A program made the position numbers and the translations under genes. Shown one piece after another: positions 928-62,155 of a DNA stretch of 64,000 nt. The DNA is from Bacillota bacterium. Its GTDB lineage: Bacteria; Bacillota; Clostridia; Christensenellales; UBA1242. Below the pieces are notes generated by a model that made no database searches, was not told the DNA's origin, and saw only the letters and a program-made list of their open reading frames with translations. The stretch lies in contig WRBH01000001.1 in assembly GCA_009784665.1 (NCBI GenBank), positions 7,267 through 71,266 on the forward strand. The letters are read 5' to 3'. The first letter of the stretch is position 1. Each line of letters begins with the position of its first letter.

Positions 928-956
928 TTGTCAATACTGCAGATTTAGGCTATGAT
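928..956 (+). promoter_or_regulatory. leaderless promoter of nifU (TTGTCA-17-TATGAT, 6 nt before ATG 963)
   Basis: TTGTCA at 928-933, a 17-nt spacer, TATGAT at 951-956, then tataaa and ATG at 963. There is no SD. Confidence 0.6.
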
Positions 957-962
957 TATAAA

Positions 963-1361
963 ATGTACAGTGATGAAACATTAGAGAGATTCAAGGCAGT
1001 TAAAAACATGGGCAAAATCGCGGATGCAGACGCAATCGGTGAGGTGGGCAATGTATATTGCGGCGACATCATGAGGCTGTATCTCAAAATTGACAAAGTC
1101 AAAGACATCATCTTGGATGCCAAATTTAAAACCTTTGGCTGTGTTGCGGCGATTGTTTCTATGGATATGGCATGTGAAAAATTAAAAGGGCTTACCCTAG
1201 ACGAAGCACTTAAAATAACAAATAGAGATGTCCTTTCTCTGATGGGGGCGAATATTCCAAAGCAAAAGATCCACTGCAGCGTCATGGCACAGGAATCTAT
1301 CGAAGCCGCCATTAAAACATACCGTGGCGAACCCTTCACGCCCCACGACCACCACCACTAA
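963..1361 (+). CDS. nifU: Fe-S cluster assembly scaffold protein (NifU/IscU N-terminal type)
   Basis: MYSDETLERFKAVKNMGKI...GNVYCGDIMRLYLKI...FKTFGCVAAIVS...IHCSVMAQESIEAAI carries the three conserved Cys of IscU-type scaffolds. The start is moved from 897 to 963 to match family N-termini and the promoter geometry. Confidence 0.9.
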   Translation: MYSDETLERFKAVKNMGKIADADAIGEVGNVYCGDIMRLYLKIDKVKDIILDAKFKTFGCVAAIVSMDMACEKLKGLTLDEALKITNRDVLSLMGANIPKQKIHCSVMAQESIEAAIKTYRGEPFTPHDHHH

Positions 1362-1719
1362 ATATCTCCAAGTCACCATTAACATGACCGTAGGCTACGG
1401 GCTTTGACTTGCATAGGTCATCGAACGCCCTGCTGTGCGACTTGGCCTCCATAAGAAGTTGTTCAAACTTTTCCAGCACTTCCTCCCCAGAGGTATCGGA
1501 TCTCTTCGCCTTGCATATTTCCAAGGGGTTGTCCCTTAAATACACTTTCCTTTCATCTCCTGGCCAGTCGCCATCGTTTTCGTCAAAGCTGTTGGCACTT
1601 ACCAATTCGCACGACCATATTCTCTTGTAATTGTACAAATTAAAACAATACGCTTGACCTTCTCCCACATATTCAACTGCCCTGTCTAACCACTTGACGA
1701 ATTTTTTTGGTTTTATCAT
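1336..1719 (-). CDS. hypothetical protein (127 aa)
   Basis: Intact ORF. Upstream on the minus strand: TTGACA, 18 nt, TGA-TAAACT, 6 nt, ATG, which is leaderless geometry. Its 3' end overlaps nifU by 26 nt. Confidence 0.55.
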   Translation of the reverse strand: MIKPKKFVKWLDRAVEYVGEGQAYCFNLYNYKRIWSCELVSANSFDENDGDWPGDERKVYLRDNPLEICKAKRSDTSGEEVLEKFEQLLMEAKSHSRAFDDLCKSKPVAYGHVNGDLEIFSGGGRGA

Positions 1720-1780
1720 GTGACTAGTTTATCAACCCAATACGATTTTTGTCAAATTCGAGAATCACCCTGCACGACCA

Positions 1781-2035
1781 TCAATAGTCTTGTTCTTTGC
1801 CGCGTGCATAATATTCTTTCAAAGAAATTTGACCACTCCAGTATTTCTCAAAATCATAATCCTCTTTATGTCTTCTGTCTTCTTCGGTCTTATGCCTTTC
1901 TATCGCTTCGTGTTCTTCTTGTTCTCTTAATTTTCTTCTCGCATCAGTTATGCTATCGTTACGGAAAAAACCTATTACAGGAATTATCTTCTTATTTGCC
2001 TGTTTCTCAAGAATTTCACGATATCCTTTGGTCAT
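1781..2035 (-). CDS. hypothetical charged protein (84 aa)
   Basis: Intact ORF preceded on the minus strand by TTGACA (2070-2065), 17 nt, GATACT (2047-2042), 6 nt, ATG 2035. Confidence 0.55.
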   Translation of the reverse strand: MTKGYREILEKQANKKIIPVIGFFRNDSITDARRKLREQEEHEAIERHKTEEDRRHKEDYDFEKYWSGQISLKEYYARGKEQDY

Positions 2036-2094
2036 AAAGCAAGTATCGCCTATTTCGATTCAAATGTCAAGAGCGATATTGAAAAGGGGGCTGG

Positions 2095-4300: not shown

Positions 4301-4798
4301 CTTTTTAAGCCGGTCGTATACTCGTACTCCTATCTTGAATTGACTAAGGTCCAGCTGTTGAATTTCTGCAGTCAAATCCCTGAAGGGCTTATCCCTTTCT
4401 TCTGCCCATTTTTTTGTTTCTGGGTTTTCGCTTGCTTTTGCCTTATCCAAGGATTCCCTGTTTCTTTCCAGCCACTTGTTGTGTATTATATCCCCCACTG
4501 TCGCATCATCATTATACCCAGCACAAATAATATCGGCGATGACTTTTCCAGCCTCCAAGTTCTCGTGTTGCCAATCTTTGCTTAGCTGCTCGAATGTCGC
4601 ATTTGCAATGTCTATCTCGAATCCGTCTTTTGCTTGCCTGACAAAAATAGGAAGATTGCCTTTAAAGCATTTACCGAATTCTTTGTCTTTCACCGTTTTC
4701 CATCTAGGGTCGTATGTCCCGTCCGCGAGCAACCTAGTAATCCTCCACTCGTCGTGCAGGCGGCTGCCTATTATCTGGGACAAAATTACAAGGTTCAT
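4286..4798 (-). CDS. hypothetical protein with two RyR-like (HxxW...) repeats, between nrdD and nrdG
   Basis: ORF 4286-4882. I prefer the start at 4798 (MNLVILSQ...) because TTGCGT-17-TGaTACTAT-5 nt-ATG sits there. The repeats LHDEWRITRLLADGTYDP and IHNKWLERNRESL weakly resemble the bacterial RyR domain. Confidence 0.5.
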   Translation of the reverse strand: MNLVILSQIIGSRLHDEWRITRLLADGTYDPRWKTVKDKEFGKCFKGNLPIFVRQAKDGFEIDIANATFEQLSKDWQHENLEAGKVIADIICAGYNDDATVGDIIHNKWLERNRESLDKAKASENPETKKWAEERDKPFRDLTAEIQQLDLSQFKIGVRVYDRLKKKKGG

Positions 4799-4858
4799 GT
4801 TGAATAGTATCATGTTCGCTGGGTTGACGCAACAGCATCGGTAATGGTATGATTGAAT

Positions 4859-5554
4859 GTGGTTAAAATAGCAGGGTTCCAAAAGAATAGCTTTATTGAT
4901 TACCCAGGAAAGATCGCCTCGGTGGTATTTTTAGGCGGATGCAATATGCGATGTTATTTCTGTCACAACTTTGAAATTTTGACACAAAAATCCAATGTCA
5001 AAGATTTTAATGAAGTAATTGCAGAGCTAGAAGAACAACTGGAATTTATTGACGCAGTAGTTGTCAGCGGAGGCGAACCAACCCTGCACCCACATATCCG
5101 CGAAATTTTACAAAAGATTAAGGACTTGGGCGTTTTAATTAAACTGGATACTAATGGCTCAAATCCCGAAATGTTACGCGAATTTGTGGAAAGCAACATG
5201 GTGGACTATGTTGCCATTGATGTCAAATGTGCGTTCGACCGAGAAAAAATAGTCCAGGGAATTACAGCACTAGGTAACAAAATCTTGCAATCAATTGACT
5301 ACCTGATAGGACAGGACAAGGTCGATTATATGTTCAGGACAACACTTGCCCCTGCCCTAGATGAAGATGATCTATTGGCAATCGCCGAGATGATAAAGGG
5401 GGCAAAGACATATCAACTGCAACAGTTCATACCAAACGAGAACTCGGAGGAATCCTGCTTTGGAGGTCTGCAGCCATTCACAAAACAGCAGGTTGAAGAA
5501 TTCGCAAAATTATTCGAAGGAAAGGTCGAAAAGGTTTTGATTCGCGGTTTTTGA
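4859..5554 (+). CDS. nrdG: anaerobic ribonucleotide reductase activating protein (radical SAM)
   Basis: Carries the CNMRCYFCHN (CxxxCxxC) motif, GGEPTL, and NrdG-like length. I prefer the GTG at 4859: TTGACG (4824-4829), 18 nt, TGgTATGAT (4845-4853), 5 nt, GTG. TTG at 4853 is also possible. Confidence 0.9.
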   Translation: MVKIAGFQKNSFIDYPGKIASVVFLGGCNMRCYFCHNFEILTQKSNVKDFNEVIAELEEQLEFIDAVVVSGGEPTLHPHIREILQKIKDLGVLIKLDTNGSNPEMLREFVESNMVDYVAIDVKCAFDREKIVQGITALGNKILQSIDYLIGQDKVDYMFRTTLAPALDEDDLLAIAEMIKGAKTYQLQQFIPNENSEESCFGGLQPFTKQQVEEFAKLFEGKVEKVLIRGF

Positions 5555-5570
5555 TGTGATAAACTGAGCT

Positions 5571-6233
5571 GTGGCGAAAAATAAGAAAAAACAAAAGAAT
5601 ACCGACTTGCAAAAAGCAAAGCGGGCACCGAAACAATACTCGGTTGACCCGCGTCTTGATCGTGCCTATTCGCGGAATATTCGCTGCCCTTACTGCAAAG
5701 CATTAATCGCTAAATGGACAACGACCTGCGTCCAGTGTGGAATCACAAAAGAAGAAATTGTTTATGCTTCACACCAGGACGCAAAGGCCGTCATCAACAA
5801 GGCCGAAAAAGGAAAAGTTCTGTGGACAAAAACAATCCCGGTCGACTTGAATTTCCGCAAGTTTATGTTGCTACTTATCTTTTTGGGCGTATTTGGAGCA
5901 CATAACTTCTATGTCGGACGAAAGGTTCGCGGGTGGATTATACTTTGTTCGACATTATTGCTGATATTTTCATCCCTGTTCTTTTATCATCCGAATTTTG
6001 ACCTAGGAACTCCTGGCCATCCATGGCGAGAAGCGTTCCCAGGGTCAGTAATCTTCCCCTTTGATATGCCAGGTATAATCGCAATTGTTGTATGGTTCGT
6101 AGACTGGTTTGCTGCAGTAGTGTTCAGCAGTTTCAAATATCCAATACGAATCAAGGGGAAGGATGGTCCATTTGATGCCCCTAAACCTCAACCTCCTGAA
6201 CAGCATCTTGCATCTTCCTTAACGCCTGATTAA
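5571..6233 (+). CDS. TM2 domain membrane protein with N-terminal zinc-ribbon
   Basis: CPYCK...CVQCG zinc ribbon followed by a TM2-like segment LLIFLGVFGAHNFYVGRKVRGWIIL. GTG start 5 nt after TGa-TAAACT. Confidence 0.7.
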   Translation: MAKNKKKQKNTDLQKAKRAPKQYSVDPRLDRAYSRNIRCPYCKALIAKWTTTCVQCGITKEEIVYASHQDAKAVINKAEKGKVLWTKTIPVDLNFRKFMLLLIFLGVFGAHNFYVGRKVRGWIILCSTLLLIFSSLFFYHPNFDLGTPGHPWREAFPGSVIFPFDMPGIIAIVVWFVDWFAAVVFSSFKYPIRIKGKDGPFDAPKPQPPEQHLASSLTPD

Positions 6234-6744
6234 ACCACCTAGATTCCGTTGGATAACTAACACCAGATAATACAAGGCTTGATCCACGAACCAGCTTGAT
6301 GGTTTCCAAGCTTCTATCTATAACGCTTTTGATTTCCTCATCTGTGAATTCCCTGTTCCCATGTATTTCTCTCAATTTATTGACAGCGAAGGATATAAGT
6401 AATCGATTTTGATACAAGCAACGCCCGCGGACATCTATTCCAGTTTCTTGTAACATTTTCCGCATAGCATTCCTCGCACCGCTGACCATGTATGACCATA
6501 CCTTTGCCCCACCCCCAGGCTCCCAGTTCCGCAAAGCACTTATTGCCGCCACGAACATTATGCCTACTAAATCTTCTGCCTCGTGGTCTACATAAGCGTT
6601 TTGTCTTATACTGTACAGATAATTATCCGCGATTCTGTAAAAATACCCATACATAGTTTCATAAAACTTCTCAAACGCCTCGTTAAAAACCGGATGTCCG
6701 TTAGGATATTTCTTGGCTATATCCATCATTTCATCTGGTGTCAT
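6181..6744 (-). CDS. compact sigma-70 family RNA polymerase sigma factor-like protein
   Basis: A region-2-like stretch DLVGIMFVAAISALRNWEPGGGAKVWSYMVSGARNAMRKML, and a region-3/4-like tail REFTDEEIKSVIDRS...GVSYPTESRWFNQALRKMQ. The 3' end overlaps the TM2 gene by 53 nt. Confidence 0.55.
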   Translation of the reverse strand: MTPDEMMDIAKKYPNGHPVFNEAFEKFYETMYGYFYRIADNYLYSIRQNAYVDHEAEDLVGIMFVAAISALRNWEPGGGAKVWSYMVSGARNAMRKMLQETGIDVRGRCLYQNRLLISFAVNKLREIHGNREFTDEEIKSVIDRSLETIKLVRGSSLVLSGVSYPTESRWFNQALRKMQDAVQEVEV

Positions 6745-6797
6745 TAGATTAATTTAACACAAAACGCCCTACTTCGTCAATACTGCCCGCGAATCTA

Positions 6798-6826
6798 TTG
6801 ACTTCTGACAGTGCTTTTGGCATAAT
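6798..6826 (+). promoter_or_regulatory. leaderless promoter of the IlvD-like gene
   Basis: TTGACT (6798-6803), 17 nt, CATAAT (6821-6826), 6 nt, ATG 6833. Confidence 0.6.
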
Positions 6827-6832
6827 ATTGGT

Positions 6833-7933
6833 ATGAATCTAAACACACTCTCGCCCAGTGCGAAAATCGTCAAAACACAGCAGTTAGTGTCTATGGGGGC
6901 CTCAGAGCCCTTTAGCGACATCAAGACAATCGGAGTCATTAATACAAGTGAAGCCTGTGATACATCTGTCCAGGTAATCGCAGGTGTCCGAAGTGCAGGC
7001 AGTGTTGCTCGTGAATTTTGGCTGCCCGAGTTAGGTGCCTGGAACAAACTTAATCCTTTGACGGCACAATATACCGAGAGTTTCGTCGGCCTGGCAGGGC
7101 GTAACCTGCTTGGGCTAGTCAAAACAAACGGCCTCGACGGAGTTGTAATTATTTCATGTTGCCAAGAAACTACGCTTGGACTCCTGATGGGATGCCTGCG
7201 AATCAATTGCCCTGTGTATGTGATACCGTCGCATAATCATGGTTTATTCAAGATGTTAGAGGGGCTTGGAATGACTATCGAGAATTATACATATACCCTT
7301 GCATCTGCATTCGAAACAGGCAAGCAAATTGTAGAGCGGGCTGTCAAAACACATTCTCCAAAACGATTCTTTACAAAACAAGCCCTGCTTTCGGTTCAGT
7401 CTGATATTTCAGGCATGGTAATGGCGGCAAAGCTGGTTCGTGCAAACGATACCAAACTGCCAAGTGACTGGCTCGTCAGTAAAGAAAATGGTAATTTAAT
7501 GGTTCGCGGCAGTGCCTGTGAAGAAGGAGGCCTTGTCAAGGTTCAGGAGAACTACCCCACACAATTCAACGGACAGGCCTGGGTATATAAGACTTTGGAA
7601 GATGCCGATCGTGCGATCAGTGGCGGCCAGATCAAAAACGGAATAGTTGTCTTACAGAACTGTGCTGGCATAAATATCTCGATTATTACTCAAGCAATTG
7701 AACAAAAAAATCTTGAATCATCCGTCGCACTTGCAACAGATGGGTATTGCGGTAATCCTACAGCTGTGTTTACGGTTACGCACTGTGAGGGTACTGCTTT
7801 TTCGCTTATTCAAACGGGTGATGCCTTAGAAATCGATCTAGGCAAAGGTCGATTTAATACAAATGTAGGAAGCAAAGACATGCGTCAGCGGGAAAAGCGC
7901 GGTTCAATTACAAAAAGGGAGCTATACTTCTAG
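6833..7933 (+). CDS. truncated, degenerate IlvD/Edd (dihydroxy-acid dehydratase) family protein, probable pseudoenzyme
   Basis: 366 aa versus about 550-610 for the family. It aligns by eye to IlvD at IKTIGVINTS, SAGSVAREF, DGVVIISCCQETTLGLLMGCLRINCPVYVI (family GCDKxxPGMLMA..LNIP) and the C-terminal ALATDGYCGNPT (family ITDGRFSGGT). The Mg-binding SDG motif, the D and K of GCDK, and the CGTCSG cluster-ligand segment are missing. Confidence 0.7.
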   Translation: MNLNTLSPSAKIVKTQQLVSMGASEPFSDIKTIGVINTSEACDTSVQVIAGVRSAGSVAREFWLPELGAWNKLNPLTAQYTESFVGLAGRNLLGLVKTNGLDGVVIISCCQETTLGLLMGCLRINCPVYVIPSHNHGLFKMLEGLGMTIENYTYTLASAFETGKQIVERAVKTHSPKRFFTKQALLSVQSDISGMVMAAKLVRANDTKLPSDWLVSKENGNLMVRGSACEEGGLVKVQENYPTQFNGQAWVYKTLEDADRAISGGQIKNGIVVLQNCAGINISIITQAIEQKNLESSVALATDGYCGNPTAVFTVTHCEGTAFSLIQTGDALEIDLGKGRFNTNVGSKDMRQREKRGSITKRELYF

Positions 7934-9996
7934 ACCCTTGCCGAGCCTATTACATAAAATGCTTCAGGCATGTTACGAAGTGCATTTTGTCGATATAGAT
8001 ATCTCATTTGAAACATTGCCCCTATTATAGTATTTGCGCGATCACGGAGGATTTTTGTTGTTAGATCACATGGAGGATCCCCCTCGACAGTACGCCACCG
8101 TGTTCCATTAAGTTCCATCCTGTCATAAAATGTACGGAAGTCGCGAGTCAGGAAGTGTCTGCCACTGGTCATGCATACTCCTGTATAGGTGCTGGTAACA
8201 AAGCCAACACCAAGAGACACAGTGGTTGGATCAAGTACAGATACCCCGAGTGTTAATCTGTTATATGTACGAATTCCAAACATGTGGGTAATGGTTGCGT
8301 AAATGTCAATGTTCGCCATAAACCTCTCGATTCGGCGTTCAGTTCGATCATTCGGATTTAAAATCATGAATGGCAGCCGCTCGCCCAAAACATTGTTCTC
8401 AGCATCCAAACCTGACAGCAATCCTCCTCCTGGATTTCGTGGATCGTTGTATGCGACCATATTAAAGTGGTCCCCATATAAAACAAGAACTGTTGTGTCA
8501 GCAAGCATGACAGTTCCACATGGATGACGAGCCAAATCTGGAGTATTTTCCAGGTGCTCCATCAAAATACCAATGCCAATGTCATAGTCATGCAATGCAA
8601 TCATGTATGACATTACCGCATGGCGAATCTCGGGAAGCCCCATCTTCGGGAAATCTTGAATTAAAATATTCTCGTGATCTTGAATCCATTGTGTGGCCTG
8701 TGCAAAATCAGGTAGTGTCATCACAACGGAACTGGTATGTGGAGCGTGTGGAGAAATGTTTAAAACATAGTTAAAAAATGTTCTGTTCGACGGGGCAATA
8801 TAATTAATCATCTCTCTGAACATTACGCTGTCACTGTTACGACTCATACTGTTATGGATTCTTATCCCTACATGCGTTGTGTCTTTTATCCAGTCGAATC
8901 CTTTGTATTGAGGTAAAAAAAACGAGCTGCGACCGTAAAAAGTTCGATGGAAATTATGAATCGCACCGATTTGGTCGTGACCAGCCCTGCGAAATATATG
9001 TGGCAGGGATTGCGGCGTTTTCACCCGTGGGAAATTCGACCACATCTCTAATCCTTGAACATGCGAGCCTACAAGGGACACATACTCGGTTATATTCGTC
9101 CGTTCATGCCCATAAAACCCATCAACCCATGTTGACATGCCTTGGATTCTGTATAAATTTGGAGTCAATACTGGATGAATAGCATCAAGTTCCACAGTCT
9201 CCATCATTAACATAATCATGTTATAATTCTCGTCTAATTGCCATTCGGGTGATAATTCCACCCAATCACTGTGAGAAAATTCTGTGGGCGGCAATTCTGT
9301 TGTAAATGTTGGATTGATTCCAGTAATGTGAAGCAAATTTCTAAAATAAAAGGCAAATGACCCGAATCTTCTTAGATAATTCTCACGATGACTGAATTGA
9401 TTTAACATGAATCGACTGTTATGTTCGTTATCTATCCAGTTTGCATAAACAGGTGGTAAAACCGAGTGATGTACGATCTTGCCACTTAGGGTAATCGTCA
9501 TAATTAAAATCACCACTACAAAACCCTTAAGGGTGTATCCTGCCCTTATATGTCTTAGTTTCCTCTTTACTATTATGCACGCGGCTATGAACGAGGCCCC
9601 AAGAGCAATAAGAAGCCCTAGCTCCAAAAATATCACTAACTGGGCACTTTCCATCGCAAACCAAATCTCTGTAAATGCCATAACATTTTCAAATTGGAAG
9701 ATTTCGCTGAGATTGCTGGTTGCCCCTATATTTGCCAAGGTCACACCCCCCTGAAGGAAAAGGGCGAATCCAAAAATAGAAATCTGTGCGGTGCGGTTAG
9801 GAATACAAGAAATTATAAGGGCAAATACCAACATTACCGCAAACGAGAAGAAAAAACCAGCTGGCATTCCCCACCCCGTCCGTGTAAACATAATAACTTC
9901 AAATAATATGCTAACAACCAACCATGCAGCAGGAATAAGCAGCTTCGCCATAACAACTTGTTTGCGAGTGATTTGTTTCTCCTCTTGCACTTCCAT
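7930..9996 (-). CDS. LTA synthase family / sulfatase-like membrane protein
   Basis: 688 aa with an N-terminal multi-TM region followed by an alkaline-phosphatase-superfamily domain (MLMMETVE..., VLVLYGDH). Confidence 0.75.
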   Translation of the reverse strand: MEVQEEKQITRKQVVMAKLLIPAAWLVVSILFEVIMFTRTGWGMPAGFFFSFAVMLVFALIISCIPNRTAQISIFGFALFLQGGVTLANIGATSNLSEIFQFENVMAFTEIWFAMESAQLVIFLELGLLIALGASFIAACIIVKRKLRHIRAGYTLKGFVVVILIMTITLSGKIVHHSVLPPVYANWIDNEHNSRFMLNQFSHRENYLRRFGSFAFYFRNLLHITGINPTFTTELPPTEFSHSDWVELSPEWQLDENYNMIMLMMETVELDAIHPVLTPNLYRIQGMSTWVDGFYGHERTNITEYVSLVGSHVQGLEMWSNFPRVKTPQSLPHIFRRAGHDQIGAIHNFHRTFYGRSSFFLPQYKGFDWIKDTTHVGIRIHNSMSRNSDSVMFREMINYIAPSNRTFFNYVLNISPHAPHTSSVVMTLPDFAQATQWIQDHENILIQDFPKMGLPEIRHAVMSYMIALHDYDIGIGILMEHLENTPDLARHPCGTVMLADTTVLVLYGDHFNMVAYNDPRNPGGGLLSGLDAENNVLGERLPFMILNPNDRTERRIERFMANIDIYATITHMFGIRTYNRLTLGVSVLDPTTVSLGVGFVTSTYTGVCMTSGRHFLTRDFRTFYDRMELNGTRWRTVEGDPPCDLTTKILRDRANTIIGAMFQMRYLYRQNALRNMPEAFYVIGSARV

Positions 9997-10018
9997 AGTT
10001 TATAATATACAATGAATT

Positions 10019-10693
10019 TTAATTTTTGCCAAATCTTCTATTGCGTTTTTGATACTCTGCTATACATTTGTCTATAAATTTTTCAGTTATAGCGGGCCAG
10101 TGTAGCTTTGGAAAATAAAATTCGGAATATGATAAATGCCACAACATAAAATTACTAATTCTTTGCTCGCCACTTGTCCTGACAACAAAATCAAGATCAG
10201 GCAAATCTCCGCCCCACAAGAGTTTGGCAAACCCTTCCTCGGACACGGGTTGAACCGCCAGATTTGCGGCCCGAACGATGTCTGCCCTGCCACCGTAATT
10301 AACGCAGAGGTTTAAAATGCAACGAGTATTATCTCTTGTTGCTTCTACTACATCGTTCAAAACATCCTGCATATCTTGCGGAAATTTGGTCAAATCGCCA
10401 CTGGTTACTACTTTGATTCCCTCGCGGATAAATTCATCTTTTGCCTCGTGCATGTTTTCGCGAACAATACGAAAAATCTCGTCGATTTCCGCCTGTTCCC
10501 TGTTCCAGTTTTCGGTAGAAAATGCAAAAATAGACACCACTTCAATGCCTCTGTTGGCACAATGTTTAACCGCCAACTTGACACGACGAAAACCCTCTTG
10601 ATGTCCGACAAATTTCGCAAGTCCTTTCATCTTCGCCCACCGACGATTGCCGTCCATGATGAATGCGATGTGTCTTGGGACTGGTTTTGTCAT
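10019..10693 (-). CDS. uppS: isoprenyl transferase (undecaprenyl diphosphate synthase)
   Basis: HIAFIMDGNRRWAK, FSTENWNR and RTSGEQRISNFMLWHLSYSEF motifs. Confidence 0.95.
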   Translation of the reverse strand: MTKPVPRHIAFIMDGNRRWAKMKGLAKFVGHQEGFRRVKLAVKHCANRGIEVVSIFAFSTENWNREQAEIDEIFRIVRENMHEAKDEFIREGIKVVTSGDLTKFPQDMQDVLNDVVEATRDNTRCILNLCVNYGGRADIVRAANLAVQPVSEEGFAKLLWGGDLPDLDFVVRTSGEQRISNFMLWHLSYSEFYFPKLHWPAITEKFIDKCIAEYQKRNRRFGKN

Positions 10694-50265: not shown

Positions 50266-50448
50266 TTGACAACTCATTTCGATTCAAGTATAATCTAATA
50301 GGTTTACACATGAACAACTTTGTGAGAGGAATGGCTGCAATCGTTATGGACAACACACGGCTTGCCAAGTGTGTCTTTTAGGAATGATTATCTAAAACCA
50401 CATTACACACTTGGCAAGTCAAAACTGACCCTTCTTACGGGGTTTTTT
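50266..50448 (+). promoter_or_regulatory. candidate cis-regulatory leader or small RNA: promoter, 23-codon uORF, 14-bp perfect inverted repeat, terminator
   Basis: TTGACA (50266-50271), 17 nt, TATAAT (50289-50294). uORF at 50310-50381. Inverted repeat CTTGCCAAGTGTGT (50361-50374) / ACACACTTGGCAAG (50405-50418). ACCCU...GGGGU hairpin at 50428-50443 followed by a T-run to 50448. Confidence 0.5.
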
Positions 50449-52272: not shown

Positions 52273-52273
52273 G

Positions 52274-52308
52274 AAAAAAGCCTAGCATAGCTAGGCCCTT
52301 TCTGTCAA
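52274..52308 (-). promoter_or_regulatory. terminator hairpin nested inside a leaderless-type promoter for serS
   Basis: On the minus strand: TTGACA (52308-52303, containing the upstream TGA stop), 18 nt containing most of the hairpin GCCTAGC-TAT-GCTAGGC (52296-52280), a -10-like TAGGCT (52284-52279) that overlaps the hairpin 3' arm, then TTTTTC and ATG 52272. Confidence 0.5.
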
Positions 52309-54116: not shown

Positions 54117-54698
54117 CTAATTGTTTTTTTTAATTATAAGTATTGTTCTGGTTAAATCTTCTAGATTTTTATCAATAATCTCGACAATTTTAAATTTTAA
54201 GCGGGTCATTATGTGTTTTGCTGAATTAACTTCTTCTTGAAAATTCGGGCCCTTGAAAGCCAAAAGTACTCCGCCCTTTTTTAAAAGTGGTGACGCGAGC
54301 CTGATTAGTTCATTTAACGGTGCAACCGCCCTTGCCGTTACAATATCAAATTCGCCCTTGAAGTCCTCTATCCGACCATGAACCACATATCCATCAATTT
54401 TAAGTTCATCCAAAACATTTTGCAAGAAGTTACACTTCTTGAATGTGCTGTCTATCATTGTAAGAGTTATCTGCGGAAAACTAACCTTCAGCGGAATAGC
54501 AGGACTGCCTGAACCTGACCCTAAATCAATCATCCTAGCACCCTGTTTAAAGAATTTTGAAATCTCGTCATTGAAAAGCAAGCTGTCCTGGATATTATAA
54601 ATCCAGCTCTTCTCCAGTGTTTTGTGGGCAGTCAGATTGAACGCTTTGTTTGTTTCGACGAGAAGGGAGTTGTACATACTCAGTTTGCAGTCTTTCAT
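54117..54698 (-). CDS. rsmG: 16S rRNA (guanine527-N7)-methyltransferase
   Basis: FNLTAHKTLEKSWIYNIQDSLL and IDLGSGSGSPAIPLK motifs. The start is uncertain (54677, 54698 or 54749). Overlaps the murB tail. Confidence 0.88.
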   Translation of the reverse strand: MKDCKLSMYNSLLVETNKAFNLTAHKTLEKSWIYNIQDSLLFNDEISKFFKQGARMIDLGSGSGSPAIPLKVSFPQITLTMIDSTFKKCNFLQNVLDELKIDGYVVHGRIEDFKGEFDIVTARAVAPLNELIRLASPLLKKGGVLLAFKGPNFQEEVNSAKHIMTRLKFKIVEIIDKNLEDLTRTILIIKKNN

Positions 54699-55563
54699 TG
54701 TACGCAGTATACACCGCCCTTTTGATTTTGCGAACAAGTTTTTCAACATCCGCTGCTGTTGCCCCACCATTGTTTACTATGAACCCTGCGTGCTTAGTCG
54801 ACACCTGTGCCCCGCCAACAGAAGTTCCCTGCAATCCCAATTCCTTTATCGCCGTTCCAACATAAAAGTCCGGCCTTGGGCGACGAAAGGTGCTGCCTGC
54901 ACTTGCATCATGATATGGCTGGCTTGTCAATCTCTTGGCAAATAATTCTTCTTGCTTTTTTACAATCTCGCATATTTTTCCGTTTTTAAGATAAAAATAT
55001 GCACCCAAAATAATCCAATCTTTCTTTTTTTGAAAAATGCTTGTTCGGTATGAAAATTTCAATTTCGTCGCGTCCATATTCACAACCTGTCCTTCTGTCA
55101 AAACATCGACACAGACAACGACATCCTTTATCTCGCCGCCGTATGCCCCCGCGTTCATAAACACCGCCCCTCCCACCGTGCCGGGCAAGCCGATTGCCCA
55201 TTCCAAACCTGATAAGGCCCTCTCCTTGGCGAATTCAAGAACATCGTCCATCTTTGCCCCTGCGTCGGCATAGATAAAAGTTCCATTGTCCAAAATCTCG
55301 GCAAAGTCCAAATTTATCACAACTCCATCAAATCCATCGTCCGATGCCAAGATATTGAAACCTCCTCCTATTACAAAAAAATCCTCTTCAACAAATGTCA
55401 GGGCGCTGACCAACCTTATTAAATTCGCTTTATTCTGAACGCGGACAAAGAACTTTGCCGGACCGCCAATGCGGAAATTTGTTAACTCGGCAAGGGGTTT
55501 ATCCTCGTGCACGAATTCCTCGCCGCACAGATGTTCCAGATAACTTTTTAGGACATTTCTCAC
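54595..55563 (-). CDS. murB: UDP-N-acetylenolpyruvoylglucosamine reductase
   Basis: LAELTNFRIGGPAKFF, GGGFNIL and AGSTFRRP motifs. About 20 extra C-terminal codons overlap rsmG. Confidence 0.93.
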   Translation of the reverse strand: MRNVLKSYLEHLCGEEFVHEDKPLAELTNFRIGGPAKFFVRVQNKANLIRLVSALTFVEEDFFVIGGGFNILASDDGFDGVVINLDFAEILDNGTFIYADAGAKMDDVLEFAKERALSGLEWAIGLPGTVGGAVFMNAGAYGGEIKDVVVCVDVLTEGQVVNMDATKLKFSYRTSIFQKKKDWIILGAYFYLKNGKICEIVKKQEELFAKRLTSQPYHDASAGSTFRRPRPDFYVGTAIKELGLQGTSVGGAQVSTKHAGFIVNNGGATAADVEKLVRKIKRAVYTAYNERLQTEYVQLPSRRNKQSVQSDCPQNTGEELDL

Positions 55564-55584
55564 AATCTATGGTATGCTTGAATC

Positions 55585-56574
55585 GTGACCAAGTTGTTGA
55601 AAGAATCCCAACACCGCGAAGCCGCACAAATCATTCGTGATGGCGGTCTTGTTGCGTTCAGGACCGAAACAGTTTATGGTCTGGGTGCCGATGCCACAAA
55701 TGATGAAGCGGTCAAAAAAATCTTCACGGCAAAGGGTCGACCATCGTCAAACCCCCTGATAGTTCATTTTCACAGCATCAAACACCTAAAGCAATATTTT
55801 GACCTAAATCCCGAGATTGAAAGAATCCTGAGGCTGATAACCGAGGCACTAACCGTTACCTTGCCCGCATCAGACATGATAGCAAAATCAGTATTAGCGG
55901 GACATGCAACCGCCGCCGTGCGAATTCCGTCATGCAAATTCGCCCGTAAATTCATTCGAGCGTGCGGCGTTCCGATTGCGGCACCCTCGGCTAATACCTC
56001 GACGCGACCTTCCCCCACCGATTGGCGCGCAGTACAGGATGATCTGGAGGGAAAGATTAATGCAATCATGATGGGCAGGCGAACACGAATAGGAATAGAA
56101 AGCACAGTGATAGAAATGCAGGACAAGGGATTAGGGATAAACATATTAAGACAAGGAGGCGTGTCTATGAAAAAGTTAAGAGAACAAACAGGCTTGGATG
56201 TCAAACTGGCAACAAGCCCTGAAGAGCTACAAAAAAGCCCAGGGACAAGGTTCAAGCATTATTCTCCCTCCTACCCCATTCATATCCTGACAGACTTCTT
56301 TGATATAATGGGACTGACATACCAAAAAGAGTATGTTGTAATAGGATACAGCAATCATTTTAACTATACTGATAAAAATATTTTGTATATAGGCAAAAAT
56401 GCTAGGCAGGCAAACGCGAACTTATTCTACCTGCTGCGAGAAGCTGAACGGATTTTGAATAAATCAAAGAGTAAAAAAGATAAAATTATAGTGATAGAAG
56501 ATTTGCCAAACACGGATGAATATGCTAGTGTTAGAGAGCGAGTGCAAAAAGCCAGTATCGGAGGTGATAAATGA
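55585..56574 (+). CDS. L-threonylcarbamoyladenylate synthase (Sua5/YwlC type)
   Basis: FRTETVYGLGADATN, KGRPSSNPLIVH and APSANTSTRPSPT motifs, plus a Sua5 C-terminal domain. GTG start 6 nt after TGgTATGCT. Confidence 0.9.
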   Translation: MTKLLKESQHREAAQIIRDGGLVAFRTETVYGLGADATNDEAVKKIFTAKGRPSSNPLIVHFHSIKHLKQYFDLNPEIERILRLITEALTVTLPASDMIAKSVLAGHATAAVRIPSCKFARKFIRACGVPIAAPSANTSTRPSPTDWRAVQDDLEGKINAIMMGRRTRIGIESTVIEMQDKGLGINILRQGGVSMKKLREQTGLDVKLATSPEELQKSPGTRFKHYSPSYPIHILTDFFDIMGLTYQKEYVVIGYSNHFNYTDKNILYIGKNARQANANLFYLLREAERILNKSKSKKDKIIVIEDLPNTDEYASVRERVQKASIGGDK

Positions 56575-57392: not shown

Positions 57393-58318
57393 AGAAGTGC
57401 TATCCCTTCCCTCTCCGCCCATTTATTGGTTTCATCGGAGTGAACGGATGCCTGGACCTCGCCAATGTGTCTGGCCCCAAGAATTAGCATAGCCAATCGT
57501 GATTGACCAATCCCTCCCCCAATTGTTTGGGGGAGTTCGTTTTTTAAAACCCTCTTATGATATTCTTGATCTGGGTTCATGCCCTTTATGTTGCATTGTT
57601 GCAGGAGCGTATCACTATTTACACGAATACCCATGGAACTGAGTTCTAACTCGCCATCAATCGGAGGGTGATATGCAACAATATCTCCGTTTAGTTCGTC
57701 AATCCAACTGTCATAATCTGGGGCCCTGGGCTCATCAATGCCACGGATAAACACGAAGGGATGCTGCTTAACTAAATCCTTCTCGGTCATGTTGCCCATT
57801 TCCCTCATTGTTACAAATTTCAATTTCTCGTCGATGTTGCGGTCTAACTTTGGAAAAGCACGCAGCAATTCCTCCTGGGTTTCAAGCATCGCCTCGTGTA
57901 TCTGAGCAACGACCTTTTCAAGGTATTTTTGATTTCGCTGTCCCTCAGCCATTGCAATTTCCCAGTCCCACTGGTCAACAAATACCGAGTGCGTTGCATC
58001 AAGCTCGGGTTCTTCTGGGCGAAAATACGCCCCATCGACTATTATTCCTTCGCCTTGTTGGATGTTATATTTTTGTATGGCCTCACGCTTCCATTTAGCA
58101 AGGCTGTGAGGGACCTCTACATGTTTATTGGCTGCGGGGATGTAAAAGCCGACGGGCTGTTCGATCCCCGTTAAACCATCTTGCAATCCTTTACCACTTT
58201 CTATAAAATGTGGGGCAGATATCCGCAATAATTTCAATTTGCTTGACAGTGAGTTCTTGAAATGGAATTTAATCATCTCAATCGCCTCTTGCCTTGACCT
58301 TATATCAGCTATGTTCAT
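57389..58318 (-). CDS. asnA: aspartate--ammonia ligase
   Basis: AsnA family sequence throughout, ending ...GGGIGQSRLAMLILG. Confidence 0.9.
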   Translation of the reverse strand: MNIADIRSRQEAIEMIKFHFKNSLSSKLKLLRISAPHFIESGKGLQDGLTGIEQPVGFYIPAANKHVEVPHSLAKWKREAIQKYNIQQGEGIIVDGAYFRPEEPELDATHSVFVDQWDWEIAMAEGQRNQKYLEKVVAQIHEAMLETQEELLRAFPKLDRNIDEKLKFVTMREMGNMTEKDLVKQHPFVFIRGIDEPRAPDYDSWIDELNGDIVAYHPPIDGELELSSMGIRVNSDTLLQQCNIKGMNPDQEYHKRVLKNELPQTIGGGIGQSRLAMLILGARHIGEVQASVHSDETNKWAEREGIALL

Positions 58319-58959
58319 TGCTCAGTATATGAAACTACTCGTGCTATCGCTAATACTTCCACCTTTTTCGCACCAGCCTCTTTCAGGACGCGTGCAACCT
58401 CGGTGGTAGTTGCCCCACTGGTTATAACATCATCTACTAACAATATCCTTTTCCCCTTGACTTCACTAATGACTTCATACGCACCTGCTTGGTTCTTAAA
58501 GCGTTCCGCAGTACTCATTCTTTCCTGTGGAATGGTGGACTTAACTTTACTGAGGATATTTTCGTTTATTTCTAGCTCTCCTGCAAATATTTCTTGGGCA
58601 AGCAAAGTCGCTTGATTAAATCCTCGTTCCCGCTGTCTTGCCTTGGACAAGGGAATAGGAACTGCAAAATCGTAATTCTTTGGTTTAACAGACACCCGCA
58701 TAAACGGGGCAAGGGTCTTTGCCACCAAGCCATCAGAACTATACTTCAATCCTAAAATCATTTTGGCAACTACATCGTTGTATACAAATGGCGTGATAAT
58801 ATTATCTTTTTTTGACGGCACGGCAAAATCAAGCTTCTCTAAACATCCATCGCAAATGTTCGGATACTCAGATATGTTAATCTCACCTCGGCAACCAAGA
58901 CATGTAAAGTTCGGGAATAAATAGTCTAGGACTTTTTTAATCACAGCCCAGTATAACAA
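58315..58959 (-). CDS. ComF family phosphoribosyltransferase-domain protein
   Basis: CLGCRGE...CDGC zinc finger and the PRTase motif ILLVDDVITSGATT. The start is either TTG 58959 or, as I prefer, leaderless GTG 58944. Confidence 0.85.
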   Translation of the reverse strand: MLYWAVIKKVLDYLFPNFTCLGCRGEINISEYPNICDGCLEKLDFAVPSKKDNIITPFVYNDVVAKMILGLKYSSDGLVAKTLAPFMRVSVKPKNYDFAVPIPLSKARQRERGFNQATLLAQEIFAGELEINENILSKVKSTIPQERMSTAERFKNQAGAYEVISEVKGKRILLVDDVITSGATTTEVARVLKEAGAKKVEVLAIARVVSYTEQ

Positions 58960-58979
58960 AAGGGCGACAGATTGTCGCC

Positions 58980-59184: not shown

Positions 59185-59457
59185 TCACTCTAAAACTGCT
59201 GACTTAAACTTCTTGTTTGGTTTGAACAAGGGGACGACTTTTGGCCCGATCTGGATGCGTTCACCAGTTGCAGGGTTGACGCCCTCTCTGGCACTGCGCT
59301 GCTTTAGTTTGAATTTACCAATGCCCAACCCCACTTCCCCTCCCCTCCTTAGAGTTTCGATCACAAGGTCGGTTAGTTCGTCAACGATATGACTCGTTTC
59401 CTTTTTAGGCAAACCTGTGCGGATTGAGAGGTCCTTTATAAAAGCTTTCTTTGTCAT
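59185..59457 (-). CDS. hup: HU family DNA-binding protein
   Basis: 90 aa. ...RSAREGVNPATGERIQIGPKVVPLFKPNKKFK is a typical HU arm. Confidence 0.95.
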   Translation of the reverse strand: MTKKAFIKDLSIRTGLPKKETSHIVDELTDLVIETLRRGGEVGLGIGKFKLKQRSAREGVNPATGERIQIGPKVVPLFKPNKKFKSAVLE

Positions 59458-59474
59458 GACTAGATGATACCCAG

Positions 59475-59503
59475 TTGTATAAGTTGTTAAACATTAGTAT
59501 ACT
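59475..59503 (+). promoter_or_regulatory. promoter firing into the 59509-59895 region
   Basis: TTGTAT (59475-59480), 17 nt, TATACT (59498-59503), 5 nt, ATG 59509. Confidence 0.55.
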
Positions 59504-59508
59504 GTTAC

Positions 59509-59715
59509 ATGAGTAAGCAAACCCTTGACCTAGGCAGAGAATCTCTAGAGAGCATGTTTTCTTCATACTACTATGAACTAGATCCTAATATCCAAATAAC
59601 CGGTATGGGAGCCACTTCTGATGAGTCCTTCAGCGATGCCCCCAGCAGAGAGTGGAATCTTGCCCATATGAACTTCGCAGGAATAACAGAGGTTAATGGA
59701 GCCCAGCAATGGTAG
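59509..59715 (+). CDS. questionable small ORF (68 aa); the region may instead be non-coding RNA
   Basis: The leaderless geometry supports a transcript. The peptide has no recognisable features, and the region immediately downstream (59724-59818) carries rRNA-like motifs. Confidence 0.3.
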   Translation: MSKQTLDLGRESLESMFSSYYYELDPNIQITGMGATSDESFSDAPSREWNLAHMNFAGITEVNGAQQW

Positions 59716-59895
59716 AGCAGCAAGCTAAAAGCATCTAAGGTCAAATCTCTGTGCCAGACGCACATCAATACTAATAGGGATAAAAACCGCCAACTCAAGG
59801 TCAAGAGAATTAACCCTTATTTTTCTTTTCACGGCAAAGGCAGAACACACCCTCGCCTGGAGGGTATGATTGTAGAAGTAGGTCAAAAGAAATTA

Positions 59896-61506
59896 TCATT
59901 CCTGGATCGATTTTCCTCTTTTTTTGATAAAGTTAACAATCCTGATAGGGAAAATTCTCAAGACTAGCACCATAATCACATAGCCTAGAAACGCGGTTGC
60001 ACCAGCAAGAATAATCCATCCTTTGCCAGGCGGAAGTAAAAATTTAAGCAAGAAAAGGATCCCAATATAGATTCCAATCAGCAACCCTAGCCTTGCTTTG
60101 ATGGATAATCCTTGTTTAGTAACTCGTGGCTTGAGTTTCATAAATCGCATTACCCAAAAGATATTAAGGGACAGGGCAATGGTAAAACACAGGATATTTC
60201 CGATACTAACGGCATAAATCCCCAAAGTTCCGATAAGTGCAAGCTGAAACCCTATTTTCGCCGCCCCACCAATGATAAGCGAAATCAGAGGGAGGTACGA
60301 GCGATCAGACCCTTGCAGCAGACTTGTGAATATCGTTGACAGCCCTACAAGAAATATCATAGCAGATTCCATCCGTAGTAAATTCACTGCGACAGGTATT
60401 TGCGAAGGATTTTCATGAAATGCGCGGGCGTATACAAAATTAATTAATTCCCCCGCAAAGACCAAATAAAATAAGGAAAAGAAAAATGCGATGACCACTA
60501 TGATTTTAATTGAAAGGAAGAATTTTTGTTTTACTTCTTCTTTTTTTCCTTGCTTTAATAATTTTGCCGCCATTGGAACAATCGCTAAACCTATTGCAAT
60601 CGCCAAAACCGCAGGCATGTTCACCAATGTGTGAACCGCCCCTGTCGAGATTCCAAACAGGCGTGTTGCGTCGCGGGTGGACTCGCCTGCCTCGGTCAGC
60701 ATTTTAACAACGACTAGGGAATCAAAGACTAAAATCAAAGGGAAAACAGAAGCCAGGAATGTTATAGGTAACGCAGTTTTAAAAATCCGCCACATTAACC
60801 TTAAATCCACCATTCGGACAGTTAAAGTACCAACTCTCTCCTGGCCCTTTTCTTCCCTCTTGGCTTTCCTGAGATGGGCGAGATAAGTTATGCTGAGGAA
60901 CGCGAGAGCAAAAACCTCGGCGATTGTGGTACCCAGGATTGCCCCAAAGACCGCCCATTCAACACCACGAGGCAACAAGATAACAGCCAGGGTTATACCG
61001 ATAGCCAGTTTCGTGGTTTGTTCAATCAGTTGAGAGACGGCTGTCGGAACCATGTTGGACATACCTTGAAAATATCCCCTAAACGCCGCCATCAAGCAAA
61101 CAATCAAAACCGCGGGTGCAATTGCAAGGTAGAGCTTAGTATTGCCTTCATTGCCTTGAAGAGAAGCTATATTGTCGGCCAAGAGAGTGAAGAGAGTTGC
61201 AAACAACAATCCAAATACGGCAAGGATAATAAGAGAGTTAAGTAAAATTTTTCGGCACTCCTGGAAGTTTTTGGCGGTTCGTTCTTTTGCAACCATCTTT
61301 GATATTGCAACCGGGATACCCGAGGAAGCGATAACAAGCAATAATGCATAAACAGGAAAAACCATCTGGTACAATCCCATACCATAATTCCCAACTATGT
61401 TGGCCAGCGGTATTCGAAACCCTGCACCAAGTAATCGCACAAGCAACCCCGCTCCCGCCAAAACTAAGGCCCCACCAAGGAAGTTTTGTTTCTTGAGGTG
61501 ATGCAT
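59896..61506 (-). CDS. murJ: lipid II flippase MurJ (MviN family)
   Basis: About 14 TM helices. The N-terminus after MHHLKKQNFLGGALVLAGAGLLVRLLGAGFRIPLANIVG matches MurJ. The upstream in-frame extension to 61716 looks non-coding, so the start is uncertain (61506 or 61584). Confidence 0.85.
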   Translation of the reverse strand: MHHLKKQNFLGGALVLAGAGLLVRLLGAGFRIPLANIVGNYGMGLYQMVFPVYALLLVIASSGIPVAISKMVAKERTAKNFQECRKILLNSLIILAVFGLLFATLFTLLADNIASLQGNEGNTKLYLAIAPAVLIVCLMAAFRGYFQGMSNMVPTAVSQLIEQTTKLAIGITLAVILLPRGVEWAVFGAILGTTIAEVFALAFLSITYLAHLRKAKREEKGQERVGTLTVRMVDLRLMWRIFKTALPITFLASVFPLILVFDSLVVVKMLTEAGESTRDATRLFGISTGAVHTLVNMPAVLAIAIGLAIVPMAAKLLKQGKKEEVKQKFFLSIKIIVVIAFFFSLFYLVFAGELINFVYARAFHENPSQIPVAVNLLRMESAMIFLVGLSTIFTSLLQGSDRSYLPLISLIIGGAAKIGFQLALIGTLGIYAVSIGNILCFTIALSLNIFWVMRFMKLKPRVTKQGLSIKARLGLLIGIYIGILFLLKFLLPPGKGWIILAGATAFLGYVIMVLVLRIFPIRIVNFIKKRGKSIQE

Positions 61507-61645
61507 ATACTTTTTCACTTGTTTATCTTGTGCAAAAATGTGACAAACTTGTTGTACGGACTTTAATTTTATCGAAGCATTCATATAGTAGGGTCGGATG
61601 GATAACCCTTGTCGTTGAAAGAATTTTATAGTATAATATAAAGAC

Positions 61646-62155
61646 ATGAAAGGACTTAGGCTGTCTGCGGCAATTCTTGCCATTATTGTGTGCATTATAG
61701 GTGCCGCATCGACCATTATCGAGATTATTGAAATGGATCTCTTTTATGACTTCGATATTATTTCGATTGAGGTAATTCTTTCGATGATCATTGCATCGGC
61801 GTTACTGATAGCTTTTTTCGTCGTTGCTATCATTCTGTGTGCAAAGCGAAGTCGTGGCCTGATAATCACCATACTAGTTCTCACCTGTGTTATTCTTGCA
61901 TTCTTGGTCGCAGGTATCGCAATGGTTGCCACGGGAGATTATTCTGTCCCAGTTGTTTATTGGATTCTGAACGGAGTTAATTTAGCTTTACTGATCACTA
62001 TTGTTATTTTATCCGCCATTTACCTGACGAGAAGAGTAACAAAGTATACGATATATAAGAAAAATAAAAAACTCCTAGACAGGATGCTTACTGAAGGATC
62101 AATTAGAGAAGATTTTTACCGCCAAGTTCTGGCGGAAGAAGCAGGAAAACTTTAA
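61646..62155 (+). CDS. membrane protein (169 aa)
   Basis: Four hydrophobic helices. TTGTCG-17-TATAAT-8 nt-ATG. Confidence 0.6.
   Translation: MKGLRLSAAILAIIVCIIGAASTIIEIIEMDLFYDFDIISIEVILSMIIASALLIAFFVVAIILCAKRSRGLIITILVLTCVILAFLVAGIAMVATGDYSVPVVYWILNGVNLALLITIVILSAIYLTRRVTKYTIYKKNKKLLDRMLTEGSIREDFYRQVLAEEAGKL

Follow-up and report, generated by a model that had tools for sequence, protein, structure and literature searches.

Predicted leaderless expression of most transcription units in a 64-kb window from an uncultured, small-genome Bacillota lineage

The 64-kb stretch of contig WRBH01000001.1 analysed here (the window) comes from an uncultured, small-genome gut member of the Bacillota, within the Clostridia near Christensenellaceae, with a genome of about 1.3–1.5 Mb and a GC content of 44%. 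The window is likewise 44% GC and is 94.6% coding; curation yielded 76 coding features. It matches metagenome contig ERZ27257297:k141_2632788 (284,100 nt), with an offset of 140,669 between record and window positions (record minus window). Our subject is an arrangement found at the beginning of many of these genes, in which the −10 hexamer of a sigma-70-type promoter ends 5–8 nt before an ATG or GTG start codon that lacks a Shine-Dalgarno (SD) sequence. We call such starts leaderless-type. There are 42 of them (55% of the features), 32 strong and 10 weak, a weak unit being one with a −10 box that matches the consensus at 4 of 6 positions or with a poor −35 box. An earlier note on this DNA had listed 26 starts of this kind and spoken of about 20 genes. 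All 26 are ATG or GTG codons on the strand given, with a TAnnnT-type hexamer 5–8 nt upstream and no SD, so the geometry stands, but the count falls short of the curated total of about 42. The same geometry occurs at 16 starts beyond that list (6744, 9996, 14780, 19175, 22793, 28999, 30670, 36394, 39779, 50236, 54698, 55563, 58318, 61716, 63332 and 63678). The names given there to nifU, nrdG, proC, smpB, trpS, gyrB, serS, comF and hup match NCBIfam and Pfam. The units are listed below with coordinates, strand, product and motif (−35 box, spacer, −10 box with TGn where present, distance to the start codon, start codon; for some units only the −10 part is given).

928..965, +, NifU: TTGTCA-17-TATGAT-6nt-ATG
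1717..1755, −, hyp127: TTGACA-18-TGnTAAACT-6nt-ATG
2033..2070, −, hyp84, weak −10: TTGACA-17-GATACT-6nt-ATG
4796..4832, −, hyp170, weak: TTGCGT-17-TGnTACTAT-5nt-ATG; rival SD-led TTG at 4732
4824..4861, +, NrdG: TTGACG-18-TGnTATGAT-5nt-GTG; −35 overlaps the hyp170 −35
5537..5573, +, TM2-domain protein: TTGATT-17-TGnTAAACT-5nt-GTG
6742..6780, −, sigma-70 region 2 protein: TTGACG-18-TGnTAAATT-6nt-ATG
6798..6835, +, IlvD/Edd-like protein: TTGACT-17-TGnCATAAT-6nt-ATG
9994..10032, −, LtaS-like sulfatase: TTGGCA-17-TATATT-7nt-ATG
13364..13402, −, hyp116: TTGGTG-18-TGnTATAAT-6nt-ATG
14778..14816, −, FAD/Rieske protein, weak: AATAAT-6nt-ATG
17522..17559, +, hyp398: perfect TTGACA-17-TATAAT-6nt-ATG; −35 includes the TGA stop of the V-ATPase D gene
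19173..19211, −, hyp141: perfect TTGACA-18-TATAAT-6nt-ATG; absent from the earlier list
22791..22828, −, metallo-beta-lactamase-fold protein: TTGCAA-17-TATATT-6nt-ATG
23307..23344, +, hyp197: TGnTATAGT-6nt-ATG
27631..27669, −, hyp128: TGnTATTAT-6nt-ATG
28997..29037, −, pseudouridine synthase (RsuA-like), weak: TACCAT-8nt-ATG
28989..29026, +, hyp103, small uncalled open reading frame (ORF): TTGATT-17-TGnTACACT-6nt-ATG; divergent from 28999
30668..30706, −, NUDIX: TGnTACAAT-6nt-GTG; divergent from proC
30666..30702, +, ProC: TTCACA-17-TATAAT-5nt-ATG
31898..31934, −, SmpB: TTGTCA-17-TGnTATGTT-5nt-ATG; geometry kept in relative L095
31928..31965, +, hyp122: TTGACA-17-TATACT-6nt-ATG
33289..33326, −, TrpS: TTGCTC-17-TATAAT-6nt-ATG
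35681..35719, −, His-rich 26-aa leader ORF: perfect TTGACA-18-TATAAT-6nt-ATG
36392..36429, −, HlyIII/TrhA: TTGAAA-17-TATAAT-6nt-ATG
39280..39317, −, hyp193: TTGCAA-17-TATAAT-6nt-ATG
39777..39815, −, NUDIX: TTGCAA-18-TATGAT-6nt-ATG
45470..45510, −, GyrB: TTGCCA-18-TGnTATACT-8nt-ATG
45900..45937, +, amidohydrolase: TTGTCA-18-TGnTATTAT-5nt-ATG
50234..50272, −, nitroreductase, weak −10: TTGTCA-18-TGnTATAGA-6nt-ATG; operon-first, next three genes with AAGGAGGT
52270..52308, −, SerS: TTGACA-18-TGnTAGGCT-6nt-ATG; −35 includes the upstream TGA stop
54696..54734, −, RsmG: TTCGCA-17-TATACT-7nt-ATG; within the murB 3′ end
55561..55597, −, MurB, weak: TACCAT-5nt-GTG
55550..55587, +, Sua5/TsaC: TGnTATGCT-6nt-GTG; divergent from murB
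58316..58352, −, AsnA, weak: TATACT-5nt-ATG; promoter within comF
58942..58978, −, ComF: TGnTATACT-5nt-GTG
59455..59491, −, HU, weak −35: TATCAT-6nt-ATG
59475..59511, +, hyp68, weak, small uncalled ORF: TATACT-5nt-ATG
61609..61648, +, hyp169: TTGTCG-17-TATAAT-8nt-ATG
61714..61752, −, polysaccharide-synthesis/MATE-like protein, weak, start ambiguous: AATAAT-7nt-ATG
63330..63368, −, SpoU-type methylase: TAGACA-18-TGnTAAAGT-6nt-ATG
63676..63713, −, RNase III-domain protein: TTGACG-18-TTTAAT-5nt-ATG

The −10 box lies 5 nt from the start codon in 11 of these units, 6 nt in 25, 7 nt in three and 8 nt in three, and the sharp peak at 6 nt is seen in both a promoter scan and a −10-only scan of the window. 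The modal spacing matches the usual distance from the −10 box to the transcription start site of sigma-70 polymerases. The weak members among the starts listed earlier are 2035 (−10 GATACT), 4798 (rival start), 59457 and 59509 (poor −35 boxes), 29024 and again 59509 (small uncalled ORFs), and 52272, which has a −10 of TAGGCT, yet carries TGn and a perfect −35.

Because circular picking of starts had to be avoided, promoters were scanned before any start was examined. Both strands were searched for a −10 TAnnnT with a −35 at 16–18 bp and an optional TGn, at a score of at least 10 of 13, and the sequence downstream was inspected afterwards. The window contains 50 such sites, compared with 18.2 ± 4.3 in 200 dinucleotide shuffles. 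At 21 of the 50, an ORF of 60 aa or more begins with an ATG or GTG 5–8 nt downstream (exactly 6 nt in 13), compared with a mean of 0.11 and a maximum of 1 in the shuffles and with 2.5 events in other 4-nt distance bins of the real sequence. The same scan of 50 kb of Escherichia coli K-12 gave 0 events, and about 800 kb from distant Firmicutes of similar GC content showed no enrichment (ratio 0.7). A strict automatic classifier scores 24% of window genes as leaderless, against 1% in the distant Firmicutes. The pattern extends into 19.4 kb of held-out flanking sequence from that metagenome contig, where 14 promoter-to-start events stand against about 0.3 per control bin; the leaderless-type genes there include those for RNase R, DNA polymerase III delta and delta′, guanylate kinase and GltX.

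The boxes have the makeup of promoters. When the 42 units are aligned on the −10 box, TTG occurs upstream at a spacer of 17 bp in 16 and of 18 bp in 13 (29 of 42 together), and each of the remaining spacers between 10 and 26 has it in only 0–2 units. An extended −10 with TGn is present in 19 of the 42, and the hexamer has T at position 1 in 38 units, A at position 2 in 41 and T at position 6 in 41. This bears out the TTGACA-17/18-TATAAT consensus with frequent TGn described in the earlier note, and the fixed 17–18 bp TTG, the TGn and the hexamer pattern together form a recognition signature of sigma-70/sigma-A rather than a ribosome-binding element. An independent consensus scan of a section of the window found 65 promoter-like sites where 37 ± 6.7 were expected, and the sites of leaderless-type units rank at its top beside the promoters of the tmRNA gene and of hyp89, the latter with a 26-nt leader bearing an SD. 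Details that had been pointed out for individual promoters are also as described: the −35 TTGACA at 17522–17527 includes the upstream TGA stop (17523–17525), that at 52303–52308 on the minus strand includes the stop of its upstream gene, and the −35 boxes of two divergent pairs overlap at 4824–4832 (TTGACGCAA) and 31928–31934 (TTGACAA).

Two modes of initiation are separated in the window. None of the 42 leaderless-type starts has an SD core (GGAG, GAGG or AAGGA at positions −18 to −4), not even a GGAG or GAGG, as had been claimed for the listed genes. SD-type genes number 27 of 76 (36%), with 5–8 nt matching AAGGAGGT, typically AAGGAGG(T), and the remaining seven belong to neither class; several of these overlap the preceding stop by 1–4 nt, which suggests translational coupling. 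The start codons of the leaderless-type genes are ATG in 36 and GTG in six, never TTG, so that the first base is always a purine; the SD genes include TTG starts. A gene with a divergent upstream neighbour must be the first in its unit, and the 30 genes so placed comprise 23 of leaderless type, five of SD type and two of neither, a predicted leaderless share of 77% of obligate first genes. SD genes with an upstream neighbour in the window mostly follow a same-strand gene (21 of 26; Fisher p = 0.005), in agreement with the earlier statement that operon-internal genes carry strong SD sites, and the TA-type −10 motif is absent before operon-internal genes, where a strong AAGGAGG is found instead. 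Two runs of this kind are:

40333..43569, −, SD-led genes behind leaderless-type gyrB: hyp99 (GGAGGTG), hyp132 (AAGGAGGT) and gyrA (AAGGAGG)
47499..49760, −, SD-led genes behind the leaderless-type nitroreductase gene: hyp292, Peptidase_M23 and hyp202, each with AAGGAGGT

The rule that promoter-adjacent starts belong to first genes, also taken from the earlier note, does not hold throughout: 19 leaderless-type genes lie behind a same-strand gene, and since the gaps are mostly −104 to +61 nt, the promoters of such genes lie inside the upstream ORF.

We compared the proteins translated from the promoter-adjacent codons with full-length NCBIfam models. Model positions 1–418 align with residues 1–420 of SerS, 1–89 with residues 1–88 of HU (HU-beta model), 1–263 with residues 3–256 of ProC, 1–117 with residues 2–121 of NifU (NifU_clost), 2–192 with residues 4–190 of NrdG (NrdG2), 2–142 with residues 4–144 of SmpB and 2–328 with residues 5–319 of TrpS, while model position 5 falls on residue 9 of GyrB (Gyrase B) and positions 1–220 of the RsuA model on residues 1–217 of the RsuA-like pseudouridine synthase. 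The RsmG model requires residues upstream of the 138-aa start chosen by a gene caller, that is, the leaderless-type start. For these ten conserved proteins, with models beginning at residues 1–9 or, for RsmG, needing the upstream start, the promoter-adjacent codons thus appear to be the true N-termini.

That caller, the independent one of the source collection, chooses a different start at 19 of the 42 units and misses three of the ORFs, so the promoter geometry does shift start-codon calls, as the earlier note had said. Although unaware of promoters, it still places 14 of its 48 starts directly behind a TAnnnT, and most of the alternatives it picks lack both an SD and a promoter. Its versions of SmpB (124 aa), NrdG (202 aa) and RsmG (138 aa) cut conserved domains; the NrdG start at 4946 loses 29 aa, and NifU is started at 897.

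The arrangement is shared with relatives, among them contigs from insect-gut metagenomes. The closest species-level genomes by GyrB (74–79% aa identity) are the termite-gut metagenome-assembled genomes (MAGs) Lab288P1_bin46, Lab288P1_bin80 and Co191P1_bin89, classified as Firmicutes; Clostridia; Christensenellaceae; Gut cluster 13, with 1.1–1.2 Mb at 72–87% completeness and 92–94% coding density (PMC7024585). Homologues of HisS farther removed carry the labels Christensenellaceae, Eubacteriales or Clostridia bacterium. A scan of genome contigs with GyrB supplied three true relatives and two unrelated Streptobacillus MAGs used as negatives; in addition, 80 GyrB-anchored metagenome loci were tiered by GyrB identity, and three loci (L093, L094 and L095) were anchored on HisS. 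From the window tier through the 72–91%, 62–65% and 53–61% tiers, events per 10 kb fall from 3.1 to 1.13, 0.57 and 0.20, the last equal to the control, and the strict leaderless gene fraction falls from 24% to 12%, 5% and 1%. L093, L094 and L095 share the gyrB...metG...hisS-trpS-smpB neighbourhood and have 1.9–5.4 events per 10 kb at the strict threshold, against 3.3 in the window. Comparison of orthologs with the GyrB-anchored loci found few shared genes and poor synteny; the HisS-anchored loci gave more.

Individual genes differ in mode between these genomes. The hisS gene is leaderless-type in all three HisS-anchored loci and SD-led in the window, and smpB, metG and gyrB are leaderless-type in part of these relatives. 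Among 15 clade members gyrB is leaderless-type in nine and SD-led in six, and among relatives farther removed an SD-led gyrB is almost universal; in L001 (9900–10003) the same promoter is followed by a 26-nt leader with GGAGG and a GTG start, while serS keeps the leaderless geometry there. The metG gene is leaderless-type in L093 (9880–10003) and has a short SD-bearing leader in the window (36480–36523), and the presumed hyp193 homologue of L093, a 193-aa ORF in syntenic position, is also leaderless-type. The geometry is a property of the clade, most pronounced in this genome and those closest to it, and toggles gene by gene.

The motifs, their spacing and excess, the exclusion of SD sequences, the agreement with family N-termini and the recurrence in flanks and relatives are established. 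We infer from them where transcription starts and how translation begins: most transcription units in this Bacillota lineage appear to be expressed as leaderless mRNAs, a reading to which we give a probability of roughly 0.85. Sigma-A RNA polymerase would bind TTGACA-17/18-(TGn)TATAAT with the −10 box ending 5–8 nt, usually 6 nt, before the start codon, a placement from which it follows that transcription would begin at the A of the ATG or the G of the GTG, or within at most 1–3 nt of it. The 5′-terminal AUG or GUG would then be decoded without SD pairing. In other bacteria, 5′-terminal start codons are decoded by 70S ribosomes with initiator tRNA. Downstream operon genes, together with a minority of first genes with leaders of 16–30 nt, would use the canonical AAGGAGG. 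Because no leader would be needed, promoters can sit within the last part of an upstream ORF or be squeezed into divergent gaps of 21–90 nt, which fits the coding density of about 95%.

Several points weigh against this reading. The transcription start positions are predictions, and some of the −10-like boxes could be internal promoters within longer read-through transcripts, in which case the genes behind them would also be carried, lacking an SD, on polycistronic RNA. The share of 55% depends on the curated table, the strict classifier yielding 24%, and 10 of the 42 units are weak. A few starts have a rival (the SD-led 4732 for 4798, 36412 for 36394 and 61584 for 61716), and 29024 and 59509 are small ORFs absent from the independent gene calls. 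The ten weak units and these five starts are provisional.

The alternative that comes closest is that the promoters are genuine while translation often starts not at the neighbouring ATG or GTG but further downstream, on short leaders, so that the geometry is partly a product of start-picking. SD-like sequences do lie at downstream alternatives (4732, GGAGG; 27567, AGGAG; 30649, AAGGA; 39725, AGGTGA), and the SD-trained caller disagrees at the 19 genes mentioned. However, the scan that was blind to starts still returned its 21 events, family models put N-termini at the promoter-adjacent codons where the caller's SmpB, NrdG and RsmG are truncated within conserved domains, and most of the caller's choices offer neither signal; we regard this explanation as improbable. 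A further candidate, about half as probable as the first, is that the TA-rich boxes are an AT-rich, SD-independent translation-initiation element of the Bacteroidota type, acting on longer mRNAs. A motif at a fixed short distance from starts that lack an SD is what such an element would look like, yet the TTG(ACA) at exactly 17–18 bp and the TGn are traits recognised by RNA polymerase, the motif is missing before operon-internal genes with their strong AAGGAGG, the same consensus drives the tmRNA gene, and many of the upstream regions are coding sequence of convergent or divergent genes with no space for another promoter.

That boxes and starts coincide by chance in AT-rich intergenic DNA, with selective listing adding to the impression, is the least credible of the three and in our view hardly deserves weight. 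By an estimate from base composition, roughly 8% of random codons should have a loose TAnnnT ahead of them within a 4-nt range of distances, but the shuffles, the other distance bins, the E. coli and Firmicutes controls and the reproduction of the pattern in the flanks all speak against it. Each of the three alternatives is rejected as a global explanation on these tests, and leaderless expression is retained as the best account of the window.

Some of the promoters are packed very closely. Three divergent leaderless-type pairs have start-codon gaps of 21 nt (murB/Sua5), 24 nt (28999/29024) and 29 nt (NUDIX/proC), and each promoter falls within the first codons of the partner gene. At the 21-nt and 24-nt pairs the −10 boxes overlap on opposite strands, as in TATGGTATGCT. 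Such pairs resemble the symmetric bidirectional promoters of other bacteria, but the spacing differs. The rsmG start at 54698 lies 104 nt within the 3′ end of the murB ORF (region 54595–54734, minus strand); the last ~26 MurB residues extend beyond the family model, and the overlap may be real or may reflect over-extension of the ORF.

The window also contains a consensus promoter that drives a non-coding RNA and serves as an internal control:

27895..28300, −, tmRNA gene: Rfam 114.6 bits; perfect TTGACA-17-TATAAT promoter at 28300–28272

This promoter ends 16 nt before the mature 5′ end. ARAGORN found no tRNA and no tmRNA in the window, and the tmRNA was recovered by Rfam; because it occupies the region, the overlapping ORFs 27691–28005 and 28023–28283 were rejected as genes. 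The smpB gene lies 3.2 kb from it.

Upstream of hisS, a 26-aa ORF, MNTQSATRLKAGNMHHHHARIAVCGF (35603–35683, minus strand), contains four consecutive His codons, lies 426 nt before hisS and starts 6 nt past a perfect promoter. Two terminator-like hairpins with U-runs follow, A at 35634–35609, overlapping the His codons, and B at about 35572–35540, and after them come the SD-led orf94 and the SD-led hisS. With the footprint of a stalled ribosome masked in constrained folding, hairpin A is lost and hairpin B stays intact, and no antiterminator for B emerged. An ordinary leader of a T-box or riboswitch at 35683 was considered and rejected, Rfam having found neither in the window. The leader ORF is absent from L093, L094 and L095, where hisS is directly leaderless-type. 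Leader-peptide attenuation of hisS, replacing the T-box usual in Firmicutes, is put forward as a candidate mechanism.

Two other gene contexts may be recorded. The gene for V-type ATPase subunit D (16890–17525, plus strand) is solitary, with a Peptidase_M64 gene on one side and a gene for a hypothetical protein on the other; in L094 it adjoins the B subunit gene, with the A, F, AC39, E and C genes a few kb away, and the solitary copy may be an operon remnant or the result of rearrangement. A gene for a YabP-family sporulation protein lies on the same contig ~5.7 kb past the right end of the window (L092 4266–4550), which fits an endospore-former ancestry of this small-genome lineage.

The phenomenon itself is of a known kind. 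GeneMarkS-2 group C comprises genomes with a Pribnow box about 6–8 nt from the starts of first genes and ribosome-binding sites elsewhere, typically with 25–50% of operons leaderless; it takes in 90% of Actinobacteria, 97% of Deinococcus-Thermus and 36 of 1064 Firmicutes (PMC6028130). The window shows the same position of the −10 box, no SD at those starts, ribosome-binding sites elsewhere and a substantial share of units, and in these respects falls with group C. Group B, the Bacteroidota-type non-SD group, has the same motif before all genes, and this is not what the window shows, its internal genes having AAGGAGG and its TA motif being tied to a −35. In the Actinobacteria (Mycobacterium tuberculosis, M. 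smegmatis, Corynebacterium, Streptomyces) the Pribnow box likewise lies 6–8 nt before first-gene starts, other genes use SD sites, start codons are 5′-terminal ATG or GTG and SD-trained finders mis-start leaderless genes (PMC6028130). The signal there, however, is a bare TAnnnT (PMC3160421), whereas here it is the full low-GC sigma-A consensus with TTGACA and TGn, and the shares predicted here, about 55% of all genes and 77% of those that must come first in a unit, compare with the 25–50% of operons in group C.

Similarly high leaderless shares are found in Deinococcus (D. deserti, D. radiodurans): 36–46% of genes are predicted leaderless in Deinococcus-Thermus (PMC3160421), and of the 262 genes mapped in D. 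deserti 167 lack a leader, with the −10 box directly before the start codon (PMC6028130). Those organisms, however, belong to another phylum with high GC and larger genomes, and the data there are experimental. Lactococcus/Streptococcus, Oenococcus/Leuconostoc and Mycoplasma have the same low-GC logo, a TAtAAT and a TG peak at about −10 relative to the start codon (PMC3160421), but in Firmicutes with any leaderless genes (Lactobacillales, Mycoplasma) Zheng et al. predicted only 2.4–16.6% of genes (PMC3160421), and the share in the Clostridia-like lineage here is several times higher. Cultured Clostridia share with the window their broad class, the sigma-A consensus and strong SD sites, but maps of transcription start sites in Clostridium phytofermentans and solventogenic clostridia put leaderless sites at 2–4%, and the genes concerned usually keep their ribosome-binding site as well as another transcription start further upstream (PMC5171806, PMC9045289). 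Leaderless genes are thus a minority there and the relation is reversed in the window; the earlier remark that the architecture is not typical of Firmicutes agrees with these figures and with the group C share. Literature searches turned up nothing specific on leaderless expression in this clade, the members of the 36 group C Firmicutes being outside the comparison, and within what was searched a Deinococcus-like level is new for a Clostridia-related lineage.

One tentative reading, to which we give slightly less than an even chance, is that the leaderless-dominant regime arose recently within a genome-streamlined clade of insect-gut Clostridia, the 'Christensenellaceae gut cluster 13' relatives. 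Its basis is the rise in leaderless share from ~1% through 5% and 12% to at least 24% (curated ~55%), the switching of modes at gyrB, hisS, metG and smpB, and the promoters pushed into ORF ends and overlapping pairs. If true, the clade would offer a natural series leading from a canonical SD system to leaderless initiation at the level of Deinococcus, possibly driven by genome compaction.

For annotation, a standard caller assigns a wrong start to about half of the leaderless-type genes, with SmpB, NrdG and RsmG losing conserved N-terminal residues and small ORFs being missed, so that MAG annotations of the clade and the protein families derived from them would contain systematic errors at the N-terminus wherever genes are called by a model that is not leaderless-aware. 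More broadly, leaderless initiation is seen as a hallmark of Actinobacteria, Deinococcus and archaea, with the Firmicutes as textbook users of the SD. A Clostridia-related lineage with roughly half of its genes predicted to be leaderless would mean that the trait can dominate beside a strong canonical SD system, and the apparent switches between the two modes at the same genes among close relatives would provide a comparative series on how the mode of initiation evolves.

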